A stretch of 42,735 bases of DNA, from positions 1 through 42,735 of the forward strand of contig JACQSA010000005.1 in NCBI GenBank assembly GCA_016206145.1, in the 5' to 3' direction. The position numbers and the translations under genes were made by a program. The notes beneath the pieces were generated by a model. That model was not told the DNA's origin. It did no database searches and worked only from the letters and a program-made list of their open reading frames with translations. The DNA is from Candidatus Uhrbacteria bacterium. GTDB lineage: Bacteria; Patescibacteriota; Patescibacteriia; JACQRZ01. Positions 26,194 through 36,695 of the stretch are shown in pieces; positions within the stretch are counted from its first letter, which is position 1, and each line of letters begins with the position of its first letter.

Positions 26194-29100
26194 ATGCCAA
26201 AACGCATTGCCCTTTTGATCGGAGTGAGCGTCGTTGTGCTCATACTCATTGGAGGGTTTTTTTATTATTTTTCAAGCGCGGGGAGGTTTGCGTTTCAAAA
26301 GACTGCTACGTTTGAATTGCAGCCTCAGAAAATAAGAGGAGAGGTTGAGATTGAACCCAGTACAAGCTTTCTTGTAAAAAGCTCCCGTCCGGTAGCACCG
26401 GAGAAACTAAAAGAATCATTGACTATCGAGCCGAAAGTCGAGATGACTGTGCAGTCAGTCGATGATACGACATTCAATGTAACGCCCACAGAAGAGCTTG
26501 CGAGTGACACAGTATATACGGTAGCTATTGACGCGCCTTTGGCCGCTAAAAAACAAAGTTGGGCATACCAAGTTATTGCGCCTTTCGAAGTTATTTCCAC
26601 AATCCCGGGTAATCATGTCAACAGTGTGCCGATACGCACAGGAATTGAAATCACATTGAATCGTGAGACTGTTCCTTTCCAAGATTATTTTGAAATTTCA
26701 CCGGCAATTGCCGGAACATTCGAGCAGAAAGAAGAGAAACTTATTTTTGTCCCGCAAGAACCACTGGCATATAAAACAATTTATACAGTGAAGCTCAAGA
26801 AAGGACTCAAGGAAAAAGAGAGTCCCGATACTCTTTCAGACGATACTGTCTTTACGTTTGAAACAGAAGACAAAGAGCGACCCGCAATGGATACTGGCTA
26901 TCTTGGGTTCCAAAGAACGTTTTGGGATTTTGTTCCCACTCAGGCGCCTGTATTTGGCCTTTCATCCAGCGGAATAAAAGAGGTGCGGCTGAAAATATAT
27001 CGGTTTAAGGGTCATGAGGATTTTTTGCAGGAATATAGCCGCATTACGAATGAGCGGGAGCAATGGTCGAACTTCCATAATCTGCTTGAATTTCGCGTCA
27101 AACCCGACCAAAAGATTTTCGATGCGAAGCTGAAAGTGGAAGAGCTTGATTATAGTTCGTATGCAGTACTGCCGCAAAAATTGCCTGCCGGTTTTTATGG
27201 AGTCGAGGCGTATAGCGCCGATGAGCTAGAGGATATTACATGGCTACAAGTAACCCCACTCATAGGATTTTCTGCAGTGAGCGGAGGAAATAGCATTGTC
27301 TGGATCAAGGATCATAAGACAAAGGACGGTATCGCAGAGGCAACCATTTCGTATCGAGGCCGTGTATTGGGAGCCACAGACGTGCAAGGACTTGCGACTT
27401 TTCCTACCCCACAGGAGCATATTCTTGGCACTCCTGAAAACGAGGAAGAAGAGGCATGGAAATATCCTTTTGCGGTCGTTACGCATGGGTTAGACACCTT
27501 GCTTTTGTCATTGTTCGAAGACAGTGCAACGCAAGGAGATGAATGGTGGACCGGATTAACAGTTGATAAGCCGATTTATCTTCCGACAGACTCCATTCAT
27601 TTTTGGGGATTTGCAAGACGGCGCGATGATACTGACATCAAGGGTAATGAAGTGGAAGTTCAGATTCGGAATGCCTACGATTACGAATACGATGATGCCG
27701 CATACGTTCAGACAAAGGCGCGCATAGGGACTTCCAATACGTTTATTGGCACAATTGAGTATGCTTCCTTGCGTCCGGGGTACTATAGCCTTGTGGTAAG
27801 CTATCAAGGCAAGACGGTGGTAGCTCAGCAAATCAATATACAAACATATGTAAAGCCCGCATATACCCTCTCCGTAGAGCCGGATCGGCACGCCGCGTAT
27901 GCGGGAGAAAAAATTTCCTATACTGTCAAAGCGAATTTTTTTGACGGTACGCCGGTACGCGGCTTGCAGATTCTCTATACTGATCCTGACTCAAAGAATG
28001 AAGATACTGAAGGGAAAAGTGCGCTTGTATTGAATGCAGATGGGCAAGGAACTTTTACTACGAAAAGCATCTCCCATAGAGAAGATGCCAAGACAGGATC
28101 GCCACTCATAGATACTACGTATGTTGAGCCTGCTTTTGCTGAAGAAGCCGAGATACACGCAAGCGCCTCTTTTCTTGCGTTTCCTGCTCGACAGATTATG
28201 ACTGTCGATCCCAGCTATGATACAAAAAAAACGCATTTTGCAGTTTCACTGCATTCAGTTGATATCGCAAAAGGTCTTGCGGCAGAGGGCGGGATGGATG
28301 AAACGTTGTACTATGGATCGCCCGTCGCCAATCATCCCATCAAAGTGAAAGTGACTCGAACCGAATATAGAAAAAAGGTTTCAAGCCGTAAGTATGATCC
28401 TTATACAAAAACAACATATCCGGTATATGAGTATCACACGATAGAGACTGATCTGCCGTCAACAGAAATTCGTACGGATGCAAGCGGCAAGGCACAATTT
28501 TCATGGGAAGGCGATGATACATATTCCTATACCGTGAAGTTTGAAACAAAGGACGAAAAAGGAGTTACGCTTTTTTCCGAACATTCTGTGTTTATAAAAT
28601 CAATGTATGAGTATTACGATGCCCCATTAGGCGTTTCTCTTTCAAAGGACGAGCCTGACAAAATTTATTATACGATTGGGCAACCTATACGCCTATCTGT
28701 GGAGCGAAATGACGGCGCGGCATTACAGAAAGAAAAAGAAAGATACCTGTACTTGCGTACGGTAAATGAATCAATATCACCATTCATCTCTGATTCACCC
28801 ACATATCGCGACACATTTACTGATACATACATTCCGAATGTGGAAATCATTGGAGTATGGTTTTCGGGCGACCGTTTTTACGATACTGCCGGATATTGGC
28901 AAGAGGCTGAGAGTTTATATTATGATTCGCAGGAACGTGCACTTTCGATTTCCATCAGAAAAGATCGCGATCGATATCGTCCGCGTGAAACAGTCAAGTT
29001 ATCGGTAGACGTGAAGGATCCCAAAGGCGAACCTCGTAAAGCTCATGTGCTTGTGTCAGCAATCGATGAGGCATTAAAAACATTCGGGGAGGTGCCGACG

Positions 29101-31509
29101 CTTGAACCTCAAATATATCGAGGCCTCAATTCTCGACTTATCTTGCACTCTACTCACGAGCATCCCGTCACGTCTGGCGCAGAGGGTGGGGGTTGTTTTG
29201 TCGCGGACACATCGATTCTCACCCCGAGCGGTGAACGTCCCATTCAAGATTTGCGTGAAGGCGATTATGTACTTACCAAAGCAACAAGATCCGATCCGAC
29301 GCTTATTCCCGCACGGATACATCACGTGAGTTCTCATATAGATAATGAGTATATGGATATCAATGGAAACTTTTTTCTCACTCCAAATCATCGGCTGCTG
29401 GTAAATAATAAGTGGACACCCGCGGGCGCCGTAAAGAGAGGAGATACGCTTTTAGATTCACACAGTGAGAAGGTCCCTGTATTATCTGTATCGCGAACGC
29501 AACAGACCGGGCGGGTATATAATATTGAGATAGAGAATCAACATACTTTTTTTGCGGAAGGATTGTATGTCCATAATCAGGAAAAAGGTGGCGGGGATGA
29601 AAGTGGAATTTCACGAACAGATTTTAAAGATACAGTATATTTTGAGGAGATAGGTACAAACGAGAAAGGCCATGCAGAAGTTTCTTTCCCGTTGCCTGAC
29701 AACCTCACCTCATGGTCTGTGAAGGCAGAGGCGATCACGAATGATTTGTTTACAGGAGTGGACGAAATCGGAATACCCGTGAGTATGCCCTTTTTCGTTG
29801 ATGCGACATTGAATAAGACATATCTTGCGGGAGATCAGCTGACATTGCGATTGCGGACATTCGGAACGGAGGCGCCTGAAGGACAGATCAAGTATCGCGT
29901 CGAAAGTCCCACGTTGCCTTTTAAGAGCATTGAAAAGGAAGGAGGCAGATCCATAGAATTGCCTCTTGGATCCCTTAGCGGGGGATTGCATACACTCACT
30001 ATCACTGCGAGCGCAGGAGCATTTACTGACACTCTCGTAAGAACTCTTGATGTGCGGGATACCTATTTTATTAAATCAGCTTCTGAATATCGTTCACTTA
30101 AAAGGGGGGAAGAGGCGCGCTTTGAGTCTGCTGCACATTCAGTACAGGGATATGCCACCCTGACCGCATGTTCTTGTGATCGAAGCCGATATGGATCATT
30201 GGTATCAGGGCTCCGTTATGGAGGAATACGTCTTGATGAACAGGCTGCTTCCGCAGTTGCATCTGAACTTGAAAAAAAATATTTTGGCGTTACTGACGAA
30301 GATATTGCCGATATAGATCTTGCGACATATCAGCGTGAGACAGGAGGGTTTGGTATTGTGTTCTATGGTGGCGATGATCTTTATTCAAGCGCCCTTATAG
30401 CGCATGCAGCACGGTTTTCCAACGCAATGTTGTACAACGAAGGAGAGCTGATTTCCTATCTCTATACTTCACTCAATGATGTCAAAGCAGATCGTACACG
30501 GCAAATCTATGCATTGTGGGGCCTTGCTGCACTTCGAAAGCCTATCCTGGTTGATCTGCAACCTTATCTGAACGACCCCACAACTACTCTTGAGGAACGC
30601 GTGTACCTTGCTTCTGCGCTGGCAACACTTGGCGCACACGAGAAAGCAAAAGAGTATTATCAATCCCAGATCAAAAACAAACTCATTGAACAAAAGCCGT
30701 TCCTTTATGTGCGCGGACTCAAGAATACAGATACTGACCTTCGAGTGACAGGCATCATAGCGTATTTGCTTTCTGCGCTTCAAGACGATACTGCCCAGTC
30801 GGCAGGAGCATATCTGTTTGAATATGAACCACATGAAACTCGCATTGATCTGGAGAGGGCGTTTTATCTCGCTACGCTATTGCCGACACTTGAAGAAGGC
30901 AACGCAACGTTCGAATATCAAACAGCGCTCGGCATTGAAACAATCACTCTTGCCAAGGGCGTTTCATTTCATAAGAAATTGAGCCCAGAAGATTTATCTC
31001 ACGTAGCAATTCGCACTCGTAGCGGCACCCTCAATATAGCTACCGTATATGACACTGCTGATCCGTCAAAAAAATCTTCACCTGATCCTGCCATTCAGAT
31101 TCAGCGTTCATATACACTGAAAGGAGACAAGCGTTTCACTCAGCTGCATAATGGGGACCTTGTAAAAATTACATTATCTCCAAAGATAGATAAGAGCGTG
31201 CAGGCAAATGTCTTTCAAATCACGGATTATGTGCCGAGCGGATTGCGTGTAGTGGAATCTCTGCCGGTAGGGGGGTATTCTGATGAAGAGGAGGATCAAG
31301 ACAGGCACGATGTCAGAGGGTATCCTTTTCTTGTGGATGGTCAACGAGTGGTATTCGATTGGTACAAAGACAAGGATCAGCGCGCGTTCTATTACTATGC
31401 TCGCGTCGTATCTTCCGGCATCTATCGAGGGCAGAACGCTGAGATCCAATCTGTACTTTCGAGCGATAGTGTAAATTATTCCAGTGAGGAATCAGTGAGC
31501 ATACAGTAA
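26194..31509 (+). CDS. alpha-2-macroglobulin-family protein (bacterial A2M/MG-domain), membrane anchored, interrupted by a Hint domain
   Basis: N-terminal TM, a long series of MG-like beta-sandwich segments, and the A2M block RTDFKDTVYFEE...FPLPDNLTSWSVKAEA. This is followed by a helical TED-like region and a C-terminal beta domain. The length without the 128-aa insert is 1643 aa, typical of bacterial A2Ms. Confidence 0.85.
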   Translation: MPKRIALLIGVSVVVLILIGGFFYYFSSAGRFAFQKTATFELQPQKIRGEVEIEPSTSFLVKSSRPVAPEKLKESLTIEPKVEMTVQSVDDTTFNVTPTEELASDTVYTVAIDAPLAAKKQSWAYQVIAPFEVISTIPGNHVNSVPIRTGIEITLNRETVPFQDYFEISPAIAGTFEQKEEKLIFVPQEPLAYKTIYTVKLKKGLKEKESPDTLSDDTVFTFETEDKERPAMDTGYLGFQRTFWDFVPTQAPVFGLSSSGIKEVRLKIYRFKGHEDFLQEYSRITNEREQWSNFHNLLEFRVKPDQKIFDAKLKVEELDYSSYAVLPQKLPAGFYGVEAYSADELEDITWLQVTPLIGFSAVSGGNSIVWIKDHKTKDGIAEATISYRGRVLGATDVQGLATFPTPQEHILGTPENEEEEAWKYPFAVVTHGLDTLLLSLFEDSATQGDEWWTGLTVDKPIYLPTDSIHFWGFARRRDDTDIKGNEVEVQIRNAYDYEYDDAAYVQTKARIGTSNTFIGTIEYASLRPGYYSLVVSYQGKTVVAQQINIQTYVKPAYTLSVEPDRHAAYAGEKISYTVKANFFDGTPVRGLQILYTDPDSKNEDTEGKSALVLNADGQGTFTTKSISHREDAKTGSPLIDTTYVEPAFAEEAEIHASASFLAFPARQIMTVDPSYDTKKTHFAVSLHSVDIAKGLAAEGGMDETLYYGSPVANHPIKVKVTRTEYRKKVSSRKYDPYTKTTYPVYEYHTIETDLPSTEIRTDASGKAQFSWEGDDTYSYTVKFETKDEKGVTLFSEHSVFIKSMYEYYDAPLGVSLSKDEPDKIYYTIGQPIRLSVERNDGAALQKEKERYLYLRTVNESISPFISDSPTYRDTFTDTYIPNVEIIGVWFSGDRFYDTAGYWQEAESLYYDSQERALSISIRKDRDRYRPRETVKLSVDVKDPKGEPRKAHVLVSAIDEALKTFGEVPTLEPQIYRGLNSRLILHSTHEHPVTSGAEGGGCFVADTSILTPSGERPIQDLREGDYVLTKATRSDPTLIPARIHHVSSHIDNEYMDINGNFFLTPNHRLLVNNKWTPAGAVKRGDTLLDSHSEKVPVLSVSRTQQTGRVYNIEIENQHTFFAEGLYVHNQEKGGGDESGISRTDFKDTVYFEEIGTNEKGHAEVSFPLPDNLTSWSVKAEAITNDLFTGVDEIGIPVSMPFFVDATLNKTYLAGDQLTLRLRTFGTEAPEGQIKYRVESPTLPFKSIEKEGGRSIELPLGSLSGGLHTLTITASAGAFTDTLVRTLDVRDTYFIKSASEYRSLKRGEEARFESAAHSVQGYATLTACSCDRSRYGSLVSGLRYGGIRLDEQAASAVASELEKKYFGVTDEDIADIDLATYQRETGGFGIVFYGGDDLYSSALIAHAARFSNAMLYNEGELISYLYTSLNDVKADRTRQIYALWGLAALRKPILVDLQPYLNDPTTTLEERVYLASALATLGAHEKAKEYYQSQIKNKLIEQKPFLYVRGLKNTDTDLRVTGIIAYLLSALQDDTAQSAGAYLFEYEPHETRIDLERAFYLATLLPTLEEGNATFEYQTALGIETITLAKGVSFHKKLSPEDLSHVAIRTRSGTLNIATVYDTADPSKKSSPDPAIQIQRSYTLKGDKRFTQLHNGDLVKITLSPKIDKSVQANVFQITDYVPSGLRVVESLPVGGYSDEEEDQDRHDVRGYPFLVDGQRVVFDWYKDKDQRAFYYYARVVSSGIYRGQNAEIQSVLSSDSVNYSSEESVSIQ
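29194..29577 (+). mobile_element. mini-intein / bacterial intein-like (BIL) Hint domain, 128 aa, no endonuclease
   Basis: In-frame insert at residues 1001-1128. Block A is CFVADTSILTPSG, block B LTPNH (TxxH), block F VYNIEIENQHTFFAEG and block G LYVHN. The residue after the terminal Asn is Gln, not Cys/Ser/Thr. Confidence 0.75.
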
Positions 31510-32336
31510 TGCATCGTGCTTCTGTATTTTTGCTTGCGCTTGCCATCCCGCTCTCGCACCCGTTTCTTTTTACAGGTGATGAGTTATTGATTAAGAAAAT
31601 AGTTTTAGGTCCACCTATATATCAACACAGCTCGCCATATCCTCGAGATGTGTATGCAGGAATACTTCCACATCATGCTCCGTTGACATTTCCGCTCATT
31701 GCAAGTTTCTATAGAGATCTTGCGCGATCAGGCGCAGGCATTGATACATTCGTAGTCCTTGGTCCGGATCATTTTAACAGGGCTTCAGACGAGATCGTGT
31801 TATCGGATAGGGCGTTTGAGACCCCGTTTGGAATTTTAAGAAATGATGCGCGTCTCGGAAAAAAAATAATTGCTGCGCACATTGGCCGTATTGATCGCGC
31901 TCCTTTCGAAAAAGAGCATGCGATTCATAGCCACACCGCGTTTATTAAAAAGTATTTTCCTCGTGCGCGCATTGTGCCTATTTTGTTTCACGCGAGCGCG
32001 TCATTACAATCTGCAGAAGCGCTTGGCGTCCTTCTGTCAAAAAATAATAAAAAAAAGATTTTTCTGGTCGGCAGTATAGACTTTTCTCACTATCGCAAGG
32101 CAACGGACGCTCGTCCTATCGATGAACGTTCCGCTCGCCTTTTACGCACTCTTGATGAGCGGAACGTTCAATTCATTGACGCAGATTCTCCGGCTGCTCT
32201 GGCAGCTCTGCTACGATTTGTACGTGCGGTTCCCGGCGTGCAGTTCCTTGATAGCCACGTATATAATACGGCAGATTTCAGTTCAAATTCACTGAGTACG
32301 ACAGGTTATATTATTGGAGTGTTCGGAAGGCCTTGA
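31509..32336 (+). CDS. Memo-like protein (AmmeMemoRadiSam system protein B family)
   Basis: GILPHHAPL, VVLGPDHF, EHAIHSHTAFIKKYFP and VGSIDFSHY. The start codon overlaps the A2M stop (TAATG). Confidence 0.75.
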   Translation: MHRASVFLLALAIPLSHPFLFTGDELLIKKIVLGPPIYQHSSPYPRDVYAGILPHHAPLTFPLIASFYRDLARSGAGIDTFVVLGPDHFNRASDEIVLSDRAFETPFGILRNDARLGKKIIAAHIGRIDRAPFEKEHAIHSHTAFIKKYFPRARIVPILFHASASLQSAEALGVLLSKNNKKKIFLVGSIDFSHYRKATDARPIDERSARLLRTLDERNVQFIDADSPAALAALLRFVRAVPGVQFLDSHVYNTADFSSNSLSTTGYIIGVFGRP

Positions 32337-33577: not shown

Positions 33578-33611
33578 AAAAAATCTCCTTCGATTTGGAG
33601 GGGATTTTTTT
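33578..33611. terminator. candidate bidirectional terminator between convergent rplL and the 774-aa gene
   Basis: AAAAAATCTCC-TTCGATTT-GGAGGGGATTTTTTT. The GC core is only 4 bp, with a 3-nt bulge and A/T extensions. T-runs are present on both strands. Confidence 0.4.
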
Positions 33612-35934
33612 ATAGCTTGATTTTTTCAAGCGGGATTTTGAGAAGTGTGCCGCCGCTAATGGCAAATAGATCAGATTTTGTGGCAATAATATCTTGTATG
33701 CCATTCGAAAAGAGAGGGGAAGAAACGCTCAGCACGTAGGCGTATGTCCGTTTGTCGAAGACTAAGATTCTTTTTTCGATACTATCAAGAAGATAGAGAT
33801 AGTCAGTCTCATCATTTGTCCACAGTTGCGTGATCTCGGATATGGGATTTTGAAGTACGGGAAGTGGAATCGATCTTGTTTTCTGACCCGCATTGTATAC
33901 ATCGATGGTCATGGCATTTACCAGAACATACACATTACCATCTATTGCAAATTGCCTCGCATTTTGCACCACACTGCCATCACGTATCCATAGCGCTCCC
34001 TCCCCAAACCCTGTTCCCTTTCTGTCATGGCGGGCGATTACTCCTTTTACGCCATCTAAGGTGTACAAGCGTTTATTAAATATTGCGATATCAGTAAGGG
34101 TGCGCCCCCCATCACTATATGGTACCGCTTGCATTGAATCTTCATTTGCATTGTAGGAAAACAATCTATTCGATCCGCTGCATATATATCGCAATGCTTC
34201 TGTGAACGAGGTAGCACACGGGATTGATGATATTTTTGTTTGTGTATTGACTTGTTTCACTTCGCCATTTTTCACATTCACAGTATATATGCCATCCCCA
34301 TTTATCAAGACGAGCGGCATTATGCCGCTTCCCGCAAAGCGAATCGTTTCTGGTGATGGAATGCGTTGGTCAAGAGCCGCAACAACTGTGGGTGCGCCAA
34401 TCTCCACTATGCGAGACACTTTCCCTTGGATTACTCTGTAACGTTCCTGAAGCCGCGAAAGAGTATTCGCAAGATCCGTATTGGTGAGTTTTTGATCTGC
34501 GATATCACGAATAATGCGATCTGCCTCAGACAACGTTTGCTTTGTTTTATCGTCACCTTCATAAATAATGCTCGCCTCGGCAAGGTTTAGGTTCTGCTCG
34601 ATTTTATTGAGTACATCACGTTGCTGAGCTTCGGTTTTTTTTACTGACCGTTTGTCTGCAATACTAAAAAGGCTTTGAATAAAAAGGAGCGCAAATAGTA
34701 TACCTACTATAAAAAGAGCTTTTGAATTTGGCGGGAGAGGGCGAAATTTAGCATCAAATTGCAATTTAATATATTTCCCCATACGGATCATCTGCTTTTG
34801 AGAGACTGGCAGGAGGTTATTTTGTATAAAAGTACGAAGCTTGGAAACGATCGTCACTATACGTGGAATAATGCCACTAGGCAAAGAACGAATTCCTGGA
34901 ATTATATTGTTGTAAAAATGCGACGGTCTATGAAATTGAACCATTCGCACAGAGCGAATGATACGCACGTTGCCGGATACTATATTTTTTGCTTGCGTCC
35001 CAAGGCTTTTTGCGATTGTGAGTGCAATGTAAAGGACGCTGCGAATCATTTTTGTTTTTAAAACTGTGGATGTGCCTTTCTGCTTTTCCAAAAGATTCTC
35101 AATGGAAGAGTGTGAAATAGTGCTTCGTTGTTCCTTTGTATTGACGGGAATGGGCGCGCTCCATGGGTCAATGAATATTGCAGTAAAATCATGTTTTGCA
35201 TTTGCTTTTGAAAGGAGGTGATGGAAGTATTGAGTGAGGGATTCAGTTTTTTGATTCGTAAGAGAATGTTTCAATTGCTCCAATGAAACATAATCAAGAA
35301 ACGCTTGATTACAAAGAACGAGTTTGCTTTGGGGAATTGATATAGCTCCACTAATGACACTTGAAAAAAGCCGCTGAGTGTTTTCTTTGTGTTCATCACT
35401 CGCGGAATCCTGGATATCTATGAGTGAATACGCTGTTGACGGATGAGATCCTTTTGTCGGGTATAGCAGGTGTGCCCGTACTGCTCTGCCATGAGTACAA
35501 AGAAAGAGCGAACCATCCATAATCGCTCCAAGAATAAAATGAATCTTCTGCAGATCAAGGCTTGATGTCTTTGGTGCGTCTTCTATGAGATCCTGTAGCG
35601 CTCTCGAAAGATGCTCATTTGTATATTGCAACGAATGTTCAAAAATGAATTCATAGGGACTCACATTCTCCGAACCAAGAATCTGTTCGATATTGTCCGG
35701 ACTTCGATGATAGAAATCGAGAAAATTTTTTACAATCTGCTCGATGAATGTCCGATAGATCGGAAGCGTATTCTGGATGTGAAAGATGCCCAAAAGAGAT
35801 ATCTTCGTAATTGCACTTTCAATTTCTGGCTCGCAAAATACATAGGACAAATCGTCATTCCTTTTTCCAGGTATTGATAGGTAAGACATTGAAATACTAT
35901 GGTTTTTAGAGCTATTTTCGGGCTTATTCATCAT
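33610..35934 (-). CDS. large hypothetical membrane protein (774 aa)
   Basis: Uninterrupted ORF. It has a ~400-aa N-terminal soluble region, one clear TM (ALFIVGILFALLFIQSLFSIA), a charged helical linker and a ~280-aa beta-rich C-terminal region. No family recognised. Confidence 0.7.
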   Translation of the reverse strand: MMNKPENSSKNHSISMSYLSIPGKRNDDLSYVFCEPEIESAITKISLLGIFHIQNTLPIYRTFIEQIVKNFLDFYHRSPDNIEQILGSENVSPYEFIFEHSLQYTNEHLSRALQDLIEDAPKTSSLDLQKIHFILGAIMDGSLFLCTHGRAVRAHLLYPTKGSHPSTAYSLIDIQDSASDEHKENTQRLFSSVISGAISIPQSKLVLCNQAFLDYVSLEQLKHSLTNQKTESLTQYFHHLLSKANAKHDFTAIFIDPWSAPIPVNTKEQRSTISHSSIENLLEKQKGTSTVLKTKMIRSVLYIALTIAKSLGTQAKNIVSGNVRIIRSVRMVQFHRPSHFYNNIIPGIRSLPSGIIPRIVTIVSKLRTFIQNNLLPVSQKQMIRMGKYIKLQFDAKFRPLPPNSKALFIVGILFALLFIQSLFSIADKRSVKKTEAQQRDVLNKIEQNLNLAEASIIYEGDDKTKQTLSEADRIIRDIADQKLTNTDLANTLSRLQERYRVIQGKVSRIVEIGAPTVVAALDQRIPSPETIRFAGSGIMPLVLINGDGIYTVNVKNGEVKQVNTQTKISSIPCATSFTEALRYICSGSNRLFSYNANEDSMQAVPYSDGGRTLTDIAIFNKRLYTLDGVKGVIARHDRKGTGFGEGALWIRDGSVVQNARQFAIDGNVYVLVNAMTIDVYNAGQKTRSIPLPVLQNPISEITQLWTNDETDYLYLLDSIEKRILVFDKRTYAYVLSVSSPLFSNGIQDIIATKSDLFAISGGTLLKIPLEKIKL

Positions 35935-36053: not shown

Positions 36054-36695
36054 ATGCTTGAACAATTATTTGGCTCAAGGACCAGAACACGCCTTCTTCA
36101 TCTTTTTTTAAAGAATCCGCAGGAGAAATTTTTTATTAGAGAATTGACAAGGAAAATAGATACGCAAATCAATTCTGTACGCAGAGAATTAAAAAATCTT
36201 CGCGAGTGCGGAATCATTGATGAGGTTCTTGACAACAGCACAGCATCAAATAATTCAGTACTTATTCCTCCCACAAAAAAAACTAGTCGGAAAAAAGACA
36301 GCACTTTACGCAAATATTTTCAGGCGAACAATACATTTCTCTTATTTGATGAGTTGAAGGAGCTTTTTTTAAAGAGCCCATTACTTTTGCAAAATCGATT
36401 TGTGCGCGAAATATCGCTATTCGGCGCAATTGATTACGCGTTGATGTCTGGTTTTTTTGTCGGGAGGTCTGATACTCCTGTTGATCTTTTGATTGTGGGC
36501 GATGTCGATAGGCATAAGCTCGCTCGTTTCATTTCATCATTAGAGAAAGAAATCGATCAGGAAATCAATTACGCCTTGATGAAGCTTTCCGAGTATCATT
36601 ATCGAAAGAGTATTACTGATCGATTTCTCTTTACGATCCTAGAGGGAAAGAAAATCGTGCTCATTGATCGGCTCCCTGTGCGTGAGAAGTCCTAG
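36054..36695 (+). CDS. winged-helix (ArsR-like) transcriptional regulator with C-terminal NTase-like domain
   Basis: LFGSRTRTRLLHLFLKNPQEKFFIRELTRKIDTQINSVRRELKNLRECGII is a wHTH. The C-terminal FGAIDYALMSGFFVGRSDTPVDLLIVGDVD resembles a degenerate nucleotidyltransferase fold. Confidence 0.7.
   Translation: MLEQLFGSRTRTRLLHLFLKNPQEKFFIRELTRKIDTQINSVRRELKNLRECGIIDEVLDNSTASNNSVLIPPTKKTSRKKDSTLRKYFQANNTFLLFDELKELFLKSPLLLQNRFVREISLFGAIDYALMSGFFVGRSDTPVDLLIVGDVDRHKLARFISSLEKEIDQEINYALMKLSEYHYRKSITDRFLFTILEGKKIVLIDRLPVREKS

Follow-up and report, generated by a model that had tools for sequence, protein, structure and literature searches.

What does a self-processing Hint domain do in the bait loop of an alpha-2-macroglobulin (A2M)-like protein? 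The question is raised by a stretch of 42,735 nucleotides (the window), contig JACQSA010000005.1 of the Candidatus Uhrbacteria bacterium assembly GCA_016206145.1, in which an open reading frame (ORF) of 1771 residues encodes such a protein. An initial annotation, made from the letters alone, had located a Hint domain with the intein blocks A, B, F and G at residues 1001-1128 of this ORF and had assigned it to the type A bacterial intein-like (BIL) domains. The analysis described here points, with very little doubt, to an active type A BIL of the PT-HINT-like kind at this bait-loop site, and the Hint is inherited with its host gene in an A2M-like protein of the candidate phyla radiation (CPR)/Patescibacteria. 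With regard to its action, self-excision dominated by cleavage, which would leave a two-chain macroglobulin, is the reading that we tentatively favor. The host gene, the domain and its junctions are located as follows.

26194..31509, forward strand: ORF of 1771 residues for the thioester-less, predicted membrane-anchored A2M-like host of the Hint, assigned from Pfam Big_5, MG2, A2M_BRD and A2M together with a family profile.
29176..29193, forward strand: N-terminal flank GAEGGG, residues 995-1000, placed with a position script; Gly1000 is the -1 residue, conserved as Gly in orthologous loci, and its carbonyl would become the thioester.
29194..29577, forward strand: Hint domain of the type A BIL kind, residues 1001-1128 (128 residues, no endonuclease), from profiles, alignments and a model.
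29194..29196, forward strand: Cys1001, the block A nucleophile, invariant in the alignments and followed by an invariant Phe.
29380..29391, forward strand: block B T-P-N-H (LTPNH, residues 1062-1066), with Thr1063 and His1066 invariant in the alignments.
29515..29562, forward strand: block F VYNIEIENQHTFFAEG, residues 1108-1123, with Asn1110 aligned at the Asp position of the Mtu RecA intein.
29572..29577, forward strand: block G His1127-Asn1128, the putative site of Asn cyclization (Asn1128 at 29575-29577), within the invariant VHN of LYVHN (residues 1124-1128), from the alignments.
29578..29613, forward strand: C-terminal flank QEKGGGDESGIS, residues 1129-1140, placed with a position script; Gln1129 at +1 is non-nucleophilic and Lys1131 stands at +3 (29584-29586).

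The insert is a genuine Hint domain, and the profile match is not due to chance. On the full protein, two Pfam families exceed their cut-offs: PT-HINT reaches 39.1 bits (E 1.1e-9) where 27.7 are required, and Hint_2 reaches 32.4 bits where 28.4 are required; the excised segment gives E-values of 1.6e-10 and 7.3e-10, respectively, and the NCBIfam model intein_Cterm is also above its cut-off. The profile search that the initial annotation had recommended therefore places Hint families above curated thresholds. An AlphaFold2 model of the 128-residue domain, built on 22 homologous domains, has a mean pLDDT of 96.2 and a pTM of 0.88 and consists of strands throughout, and Foldseek superposes the predicted fold on BILs, inteins and Hedgehog with TM-scores of 0.74-0.90. 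The match above curated thresholds, the all-beta horseshoe fold of the model, and the N-terminal Cys together with the TxxH of block B are the features of the HINT superfamily. The translation of nucleotides 29134-29640 reads ...TSGAEGGG, then CFVADTSILTPSG...LTPNH...VYNIEIENQHTFFAEGLYVHN, the junction, and QEKGGGDESGISRTDFKDT; a wider reading of the junctions gives ...HPVTSGAEGGG, CFVADTSILTPSG...FFLTPNHRLLV...GRVYNIEIENQHTFFAEGLYVHN, the junction, and QEKGGGDESGISRTDFKDTVYF. As had been stated, the domain carries no homing-endonuclease insertion, since a length of 128 residues leaves no space for one.

The same arrangement recurs in many CPR lineages. A search with the full-length protein returned 70 homologues, of which 22 carry the Hint, in the same loop in 22/22; a word-indexed homologue search with the Hint alone as the query gave no matches. 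A profile built from these 22 Hint domains and run against 1.84 billion cluster representatives added macroglobulins of 1750-1900 residues with a single Hint at residue ~1000-1250 and brought the family to 47 proteins. A scan of one genome per GTDB species gave 171 pattern matches, 153 of which encode a relative; the best 80 of these 153 were kept, and all but one of the 80 had readable junctions, which leaves 79. All counts out of 79 refer to these species-level loci. We conclude that the arrangement is present in at least 79 CPR/Patescibacteria species, and probably in ~150. The lineages named by informative genome titles are Collier-, Portnoy-, Peregrini-, Magasanik-, Kerfeld-, Falkow-, Uhr-, Dojka-, Gracili-, Peri- and Nomurabacteria, all of them CPR/Patescibacteria. 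Loci L002, L007, L015, L016, L018, L021, L022 and others are labelled Gammaproteobacteria, Pseudomonadales or Nanoarchaeia, whereas all other occurrences of the gene are in genomes whose titles are of CPR type; these are probably labelling artefacts of third-party assemblies. The survey of A2M homologues proposed at the outset has thus found the insert in 79 species-level loci, Hint-less sisters as well, and never a Cys or Thr at +1.

The junctions are highly constrained. The Hint is 128-130 residues long in the 79 loci; Gly stands at -1 in 77 of them (Ala in the other two) and at -2 in 75. At +1, Asp (34) and Glu (25) predominate over Gln (8), Ala (6), Ser (4) and Asn (2). The non-nucleophilic Gln that had been read at +1 of the window protein is confirmed as Gln1129, and the residue is likewise non-nucleophilic in 75 of the 79 orthologues, Ser being found in the other four. 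Lys occupies either +2 (66 loci) or +3 (13), that is, it is present in 79/79, as are Phe2, the Asn of block F and the terminal VHN. Ser at +1 (HN|SK...) occurs in P0176 and P0195 and in loci L026, L049, L070 and L074, with Asn retained in block F; those few orthologues could therefore in principle splice canonically.

We also note that in 11 of the 79 loci (L005, L009, L010, L025, L041, L073 and five more) the peptide (A)EKGG stands both directly before Cys1 and directly after His-Asn. A target-site duplication was considered for this direct repeat and rejected: at the nucleotide level the copies are no more alike than their common peptide dictates, and the DNA therefore gives no evidence of such a duplication. 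The repeat may be a remnant of insertion or a functional requirement.

Which kind of Hint is it? BILs are Hint domains without a +1 nucleophile, so that no branched intermediate is formed and mostly cleavage products arise (PMC7664689, PMC4031507). Type A BILs are defined by a C-terminal His-Asn that resembles block G of inteins (PMC4031507); their N-terminal thioester is formed, the C-terminal junction is cut by Asn cyclization, and ligation is possible through the freed amine (PMC7664689, PMC4031507). The present domain shares with them Cys1, the TxxH of block B, the terminal His-Asn, the absence of a +1 nucleophile, a length of ~130 residues without endonuclease, and a location in a variable region of a surface protein. 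The type A BIL literature includes Amitai et al. 2003 and Dassa et al. 2004, and BILs were reportedly found by the former in variable regions of secreted and surface bacterial proteins and not at conserved sites of housekeeping proteins. The solved proteins closest in sequence are the Tetrahymena BUBL BIL2 (6y75/6tmm), the Mtu RecA mini-intein and the Clostridium thermocellum BIL (2lwy). With the family profile, the BILs are found at E-values of 9e-17 and 1.5e-16, as compared with 4e-7 for the best intein. The ranking by fold is similar, with 6y75/6tmm (TM-score 0.89) and 2lwy (TM-score 0.90) first, at root-mean-square deviations of 1.8-2.5 Å, and inteins and Hedgehog behind them. The type A assignment of the initial annotation thus stands, with the terminal His-Asn in place, a non-nucleophilic +1 in 75/79 and BIL structures nearest by sequence profile as well as by fold.

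Each of the two nearest relatives has its own context. The C. thermocellum BIL superposes on the predicted Hint fold with a deviation of 1.8 Å. The Tetrahymena BUBL BIL2, found at E 1.6e-6 with the single sequence and at 9e-17 with the profile, likewise has an N-terminal flank ending in Gly-Gly; it differs in being eukaryotic, in its ubiquitin-like flanks, and in having His in block F where Asn is found here. In contrast to known type A BILs, which sometimes occur in tandem, the present Hint is a single orthologous copy in the bait loop of an A2M across many CPR lineages, with Lys invariant at +2/+3.

An ordinary class-1 mini-intein that splices canonically shares the fold and blocks A, B, F and G with the domain (Mtu RecA, 3ifj/2in0), and this assignment would also account for the intein_Cterm match above cut-off, the significant match to Mtu RecA and the Ser at +1 in 4/79. 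It is nevertheless very improbable, and canonical class-1 inteins were rejected. The +1 Cys/Ser/Thr is replaced by Gln here and by non-nucleophilic residues in 75/79, and the block-F Asp, which couples the splicing steps in inteins, by Asn1110 here and by Asn in 79/79. Pfam Intein_splicing remains below its cut-off of 35.8 (21.9 and 30.8 bits), BILs outrank inteins, and neither an endonuclease nor a remnant of one is present. Furthermore, the insertion site is a variable loop of a secreted or surface protein instead of a conserved catalytic site, and the Hint has descended largely vertically with its host.

Three further kinds of Hint were considered and rejected. A type B BIL, which lacks the likeness to block G, does not fit a domain that ends in the His-Asn of block G. 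The Hedgehog autoprocessing domain shares the Hint fold (1at0, TM-score 0.76) and the G|CF junction, and Hedgehog transfers its N-terminal part through a thioester; it differs by its sterol-recognition region and by the absence of a terminal His-Asn and of C-terminal cleavage, whereas the domain here ends in His-Asn and is followed by the host loop, and Pfam Hint (PF01079) reaches 23.5 bits against a cut-off of 29.7. The best Pfam match, above its gathering cut-off, is Pretoxin HINT (PF07591), an exported autoproteolytic releasing peptidase of toxins (PMC3482391). A pretoxin module of a polymorphic-toxin system was rejected because a C-terminal toxin domain and an immunity gene are absent: the C-terminal 643 residues are taken up here by the A2M, TED-like and MG8-like regions, and a Memo-like gene lies downstream.

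Where in the host does the Hint sit? It lies between the Pfam domains A2M_BRD and A2M, in a Gly-rich loop, 12 residues (1129-1140) before RTDFKDT.

28654..29076, forward strand: A2M_BRD (PF07703), residues 821-961, upstream of the insert (37.3 bits, cut-off 22.7).
29614..29856, forward strand: RTDFKDT (residues 1141-1147) and the Pfam A2M domain (residues 1147-1221), including LPDNLTSW (residues 1167-1174; nucleotides 29692-29715), from Pfam and alignments.

The RTDFKDT/A2M segment is the part that follows the bait region in A2M and constitutes the alpha'-NT in complement, and its R-x-[DE]-F-x-D-T motif corresponds to RKYFPETW of A2M and RSEFPESW of C3. In the single-sequence comparison, residues 1141-1223 align to residues 732-815 of human A2M (6tav, numbering of the 1474-residue precursor). 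With the profile, the Hint spans positions ~1051-1182, and the alignment to human A2M sets in at position 1187, which corresponds to residue 728. Both alignments put the C-terminal junction at human A2M residue ~720-723; the human bait region is 690-728 in the numbering of UniProt P01023. To judge from these alignments, the insert lies inside the equivalent of the bait region, in its C-terminal part, as the initial annotation had claimed for the Gly-rich linker 12 residues before the RTDF block.

The loop itself is variable in sequence and 49-90 residues long among relatives, and Hint-less relatives show AE[KR]GG at the position of the N-terminal flank. When the Hint is conceptually removed, the loop from its DE[AS] anchor to the R..F.D motif measures 55 residues at the median, as compared with 54.5 in Hint-less relatives. 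The Hint is therefore a clean insertion into a loop of native length. The beta-alpha linker of pro-C3/C4/C5, downstream of which the family profile aligns, occupies the same topological site, being a loop that interrupts MG6 before R-x-x-F-x-[DE]. That linker is cut by a furin-type protease of the host; here, in contrast, the cut would be autocatalytic and would remove a whole domain.

The host belongs to the A2M superfamily. Pfam identifies Big_5, MG2, weak MG3/MG4, A2M_BRD (residues 821-961) and A2M (residues 1147-1221), in the order of macroglobulin (MG) domains, bait-region domain and A2M domain that is typical of the superfamily. The family profile matches E. coli YfhM/ECAM (E 4e-36), Salmonella A2M (5e-28) and human A2M (3e-19), and also TEP1, CD109 and complement C3/C4/C5. 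Two further features of the host concern its anchoring and its thioester site.

26206..26271, forward strand: N-terminal hydrophobic helix IALLIGVSVVVLILIGGFFYYF, residues 5-26, preceded by Lys-Arg (K3-R4), a predicted signal anchor, from reading of the sequence.
30220..30243, forward strand: GGIRLDEQ, residues 1343-1350, a degenerate thioester site without cysteine, from alignment with P0051, P0053, P0056 and P0060.

The signal anchor suggests that the bulk of the host protein is probably located outside the cytoplasm. GGIRLDEQ aligns with the PYGC[A/S/L/M/V]EQ of canonical bacterial A2Ms, and relatives show R[IL][DE]Q at this place. Pfam finds no TED in the host protein, the CxEQ thioester motif is missing from it, and the only cysteines among its 1771 residues are 1001, 1326 and 1328. 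Since GGIRLDEQ lacks the Cys, the host is a thioester-less A2M-like protein. Bacterial A2Ms, whether thioester-bearing (ECAM, Salmonella) or thioester-less (YfaS/MagD), share with it the MG chain, the bait domain, the A2M domain, a TED-like region and N-terminal anchoring. The host differs from them by a transmembrane helix in place of a lipobox, the lack of CxEQ, a Memo-like operon partner, and the Hint in the bait loop. Compensation by the Hint for the lost thioester of the TED was considered and rejected, because close relatives that have no Hint lack the thioester too, so that a correlation between the two cannot be shown.

Is the domain under selection, and how did it arrive? Cys1, Thr63, His66, His127 and Asn128 are invariant in 22 Hint sequences that are 34-68% identical to the domain of the window, and the catalytic residues (C1, T..H, H-N) are invariant across more than 100 sequences. 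In an alignment of 28 sequences, whose full-length proteins are 21-31% identical to the window protein, 23 columns are invariant; 19 of these are Gly1000 and Hint residues, and the other four are R1141, F1144, D1146 and G1159. Mean pairwise identity is 0.46 for the Hint, the most conserved stretch, as compared with 0.30 and 0.32 for the N-terminal and C-terminal parts of the host. Catalytic invariance and the higher identity together show that the Hint is not a decaying or inert insert. The idea that the Hint is catalytically dead and is retained in the bait loop for structural or binding purposes is accordingly very hard to credit: dead Hint domains normally lose their catalytic residues, whereas here these are invariant in sequences that otherwise are ~46% identical in the domain.

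In a neighbor-joining tree from which the Hint had been removed, Hint-bearing and Hint-less proteins are interleaved. The Hint-less pair P0010/P0011 falls within the Hint-bearing clade P0001-P0008 in 100/100 bootstrap replicates, and Hint-less P0025/26/28 join the clade P0013-19 in 97/100. The existence of such Hint-less sister lineages indicates that the insert is dispensable for the core function of the host. The Hint tree and the host tree agree in their major clades, and Hint types of 128, 129 and 130 residues track the host clades. The exceptions are P0048, P0201 and P0210, very divergent hosts whose Hints nest within the main Hint clades. The correlation between Hint and host distances is r 0.40, as compared with 0.76-0.89 for control windows of 128 residues. 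Rampant transfer of the Hint, which this value might suggest, was rejected, since the trees share their major clades and only the three divergent hosts are discordant; the low value is largely due to these three. Recent horizontal arrival of the Hint DNA was rejected as well, since its GC content (0.435-0.469) matches that of the rest of the gene (0.41-0.49 around it). On the simplest reading, the Hint was gained once, long ago, and was then inherited for the most part vertically; it was lost several times and moved on a few occasions into the same loop of distant paralogues.

The most divergent arrangement is that of P0048, a bacterial A2M of canonical architecture with 2243 residues and ~20% identity to the main family, which carries the Hint at 1409-1537 in the same loop. 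Pfam TED and bMG are present, and YGTEH replaces CxEQ. Its Hint suggests transfer between distant paralogues or convergent insertion.

How would such a domain process its host? After export, the A2M-like protein would stay tethered to the membrane through its N-terminal helix. Upon folding of the Hint, Cys1001, aided by Thr1063 and His1066, would attack the carbonyl of Gly1000 to give a Gly1000-S-Cys1001 thioester. Trans-esterification would not occur, because Gln stands at +1 and Asn replaces the block-F Asp of splicing inteins. Asn1128, aided by His1127, would cyclize, the Asn1128-Gln1129 bond would be cut, and Gln1129 would be freed. Resolution of the thioester may come from water or thiols, from the alpha-amine of Gln1129 or the epsilon-amine of Lys1131, or from a foreign amine. 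The expected main product is an excised Hint of 14 kDa and a nicked two-chain macroglobulin, which would consist of a membrane-anchored N-fragment of ~110 kDa ending in Gly1000 and a C-fragment of ~70 kDa starting with Gln1129, with a minor fraction re-joined through amine attack. The two chains would stay non-covalently associated because MG6 is built from strands on both sides of the loop. In A2M and C3, MG6 is formed by the segments that flank the bait or linker, and protease-cut A2M and the furin-processed chains of C3/C4 stay together. The initial annotation had anticipated either cutting of the A2M at its own bait region or a reactive Gly1000-Cys1001 thioester, and both appear chemically sound.

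Cleavage-dominant self-excision is favored on four grounds. Biochemical studies of BILs show a preference for cleavage (PMC7664689, PMC4031507), and in secreted toxins, which are likewise exported, HINT domains serve as releasing peptidases (PMC3482391). The +1 nucleophile and the block-F Asp have been regained in almost no lineage. Finally, a cut in the MG6 loop leaves the chains associated, as in C3/C4 and bait-cut A2M. Several points weigh against this reading and keep our preference for it tentative. A cut bait is a spent trap in classical A2Ms, so that constitutive self-cutting seems to defeat trapping, and the published cleavage-dominant results on BILs stem from foreign flanking contexts. 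Hint-less lineages are nested in Hint-bearing clades with full bootstrap support (100/100), and the native length of the loop without the Hint fits a re-ligated, continuous loop at least as well as a cut one. The invariant Lys at +2/+3 and the Gly-Gly at -2/-1 could be adaptations to ligation.

The last points lead to an alternative in which self-excision is followed by re-ligation. The thioester would be resolved almost wholly by an intramolecular amine, so that the mature bait loop would be intact and the Hint a tolerated passenger. Attack by the alpha-amine of Gln1129 would restore a normal peptide bond, and attack by the epsilon-amine of Lys1131 would give an isopeptide-bridged loop with a free Gln-Glu stub. 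Type A BILs are able to splice without a +1 nucleophile (PMC4031507), and the nearest solved relative, the Tetrahymena BIL2, is reported to make isopeptide bonds to Lys-epsilon amines (PMC8616854). The presence of Lys at +2/+3 in every locus together with Gly-Gly before Cys1, the match in loop length to Hint-less relatives, the survival of function after loss of the Hint within Hint-bearing clades, and the passenger-like nesting of the P0048, P0201 and P0210 Hints in the main Hint clades all agree with it. However, a single change to Ser, Thr or Cys at +1 greatly raises BIL splicing (PMC7664689), and yet Ser is found in only 4/79, Cys and Thr in none, and the block-F Asp is never restored. Moreover, a flexible loop tolerates imprecise deletion, so a useless passenger would be expected to be lost; instead, the Hint is kept in many CPR lineages and is conserved above its host.

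The Lys, too, is less telling than it seems. In a survey of 284 Hint copies in 118 non-macroglobulin proteins, based on rough regular-expression counts, +1 is Lys in 185/284, Lys occurs within +1 to +3 in 210/284, and Ser, Thr or Cys stands at +1 in 22/284. Since Lys beside the C-terminal junction is common in unrelated hosts, it is a trait of the BIL subfamily and not of the macroglobulin. K/R-G-G is also present in Hint-less loops, and the Lys is thus not specific evidence for ligation. We regard re-ligation as a serious contender, possible but doubtful.

A second alternative makes the thioester itself the functional output. The Gly1000-Cys1001 thioester could serve as a warhead that lasts until it is attacked by a foreign nucleophile, such as a Lys of a protease or an amine of a host cell or cell wall. 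The membrane-anchored N-terminal 1000 residues would then become covalently attached through Gly1000, standing in for the missing thioester of the TED. The host and all Hint-bearing relatives indeed lack the CxEQ thioester, and the invariant G|CF junction resembles the Hedgehog cleavage site. Pilin-like and other surface proteins of similar organisms carry Hints of this subfamily on their C-terminal side, which would also fit a general role in attaching an N-terminal partner. A precedent is given by the Tetrahymena BUBL BIL, the nearest solved relative, which mediates ATP-independent conjugation to lysines of other proteins (PMC8616854). Nevertheless, the warhead is rather unlikely. Hint-less family members lack the thioester as well, so that loss of the one and gain of the other are uncorrelated; the invariant His-Asn shows selection on C-terminal cleavage, for which a pure warhead has no need; and thioesters in water-exposed Gly-rich loops hydrolyze readily.

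A bolder proposal would treat the Hint as the reactive center of a new kind of macroglobulin, in which the Gly1000 thioester is resolved either on Lys1131, to give an isopeptide-stapled bait, or on a target lysine, which could belong to an attacking protease or to a surface protein of a host cell. This is a long shot. If true, the lost thioester trap of A2M would have been re-invented with ATP-independent, BUBL-like or Hedgehog-like chemistry, the target being tethered to the membrane-anchored N-terminal part, and the tandem and pilin-linked Hints described below would be parts of a general CPR toolkit for covalent attachment.

No description of a Hint or intein inside an A2M was found in the literature searches, and the survey of polymorphic toxins (PMC3482391) does not mention a macroglobulin. 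The initial annotation, too, had been aware of no Hint domain embedded in an A2M bait region, which agrees with the literature searched. The domain is of a known kind, a type A BIL, and the host belongs to a known superfamily; their combination is apparently new, as far as that literature shows. BILs have been known since 2003, yet their role for their hosts is largely obscure, and most known examples belong to hypervariable proteins that are poorly understood. The present BIL occupies a single fixed, orthologous position in a host of well-understood architecture and mechanism, namely the one loop on whose integrity that mechanism depends. The fixed site and the Hint-less sisters, which serve as natural controls, make the question of whether BILs cut, splice or conjugate directly testable. 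Conjugation through the thioester, if true, would represent a second, independently evolved chemistry of covalent capture in the macroglobulin superfamily and a potential tool for protein ligation.

The wider Hint subfamily extends to other proteins. In the search of cluster representatives, proteins with 2-13 matched Hint stretches reach the highest total scores. The sequences inspected can be sorted into three groups: tandem Hints joined by K-G(1-3) linkers in signal-peptide proteins, C-terminal Hints in type-IV-pilin-like proteins, and Hints in other surface proteins. The first group includes P0072, P0077, P0082, P0089, P0099, P0103, P0106 and others, in which a signal peptide is followed by 3-8 tandem Hints with K-G(1-3) linkers alone between them; some of these proteins continue into a transmembrane helix and a cytoplasmic domain. 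P0075, P0079 and P0080 have type-IV-pilin-like N-termini (KGFTIIEIII, KGFTLVEIMVV) and 2-3 Hints on the C-terminal side. In these pilin-like proteins, the Hint could activate the pilin C-terminus as a thioester. We also note PDB entry 8w20_A, a protein of 1368 residues named "Intein C-terminal splicing domain-containing protein", which is matched by the Hint profile at 1083-1221 (E 2.4e-9) and may be another structurally characterized non-intein context of a Hint.

The gene that follows the host ORF is its conserved operon partner.

31509..32336, forward strand: Memo-like gene (PF01875) with an N-terminal signal or anchor, whose start lies on the last base of the A2M stop codon.

A Memo-like gene is directly downstream in 49 of the 80 Hint-bearing loci, and it also adjoins Hint-less homologues, one of them from Bacillota, being equally present there. 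The A2M-like + Memo-like operon is thus conserved and tied to the host protein, not to the Hint. In the best-known case from E. coli, the operon partner is PBP1C, and no description of an A2M-like + Memo-like operon was found. With this pair, a conserved cell-surface system joins the few functions described so far for CPR bacteria. Other genes around the locus in the window are housekeeping genes (RRF, RseP, PAP2, YceG, L10 and L7/L12), which agree with the window being most likely a piece of a CPR chromosome and which are not conserved as neighbors among the 80 Hint-bearing loci; two further ORFs of the window, at 33610-35934 on the reverse strand (774 residues) and at 36054-36695 on the forward strand (213 residues), have no Pfam match at E <= 0.001. 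An explanation of the Hint by its neighboring genes was rejected, as only the Memo-like gene is conserved and it stands equally beside Hint-less homologues. Further Memo-like genes are present in L081 (7158-8045) and L082 (9845-10729). Public records name members of the family generically, as "Ig-like domain-containing protein" or, for P0015, as "polymorphic toxin-type HINT domain-containing protein".

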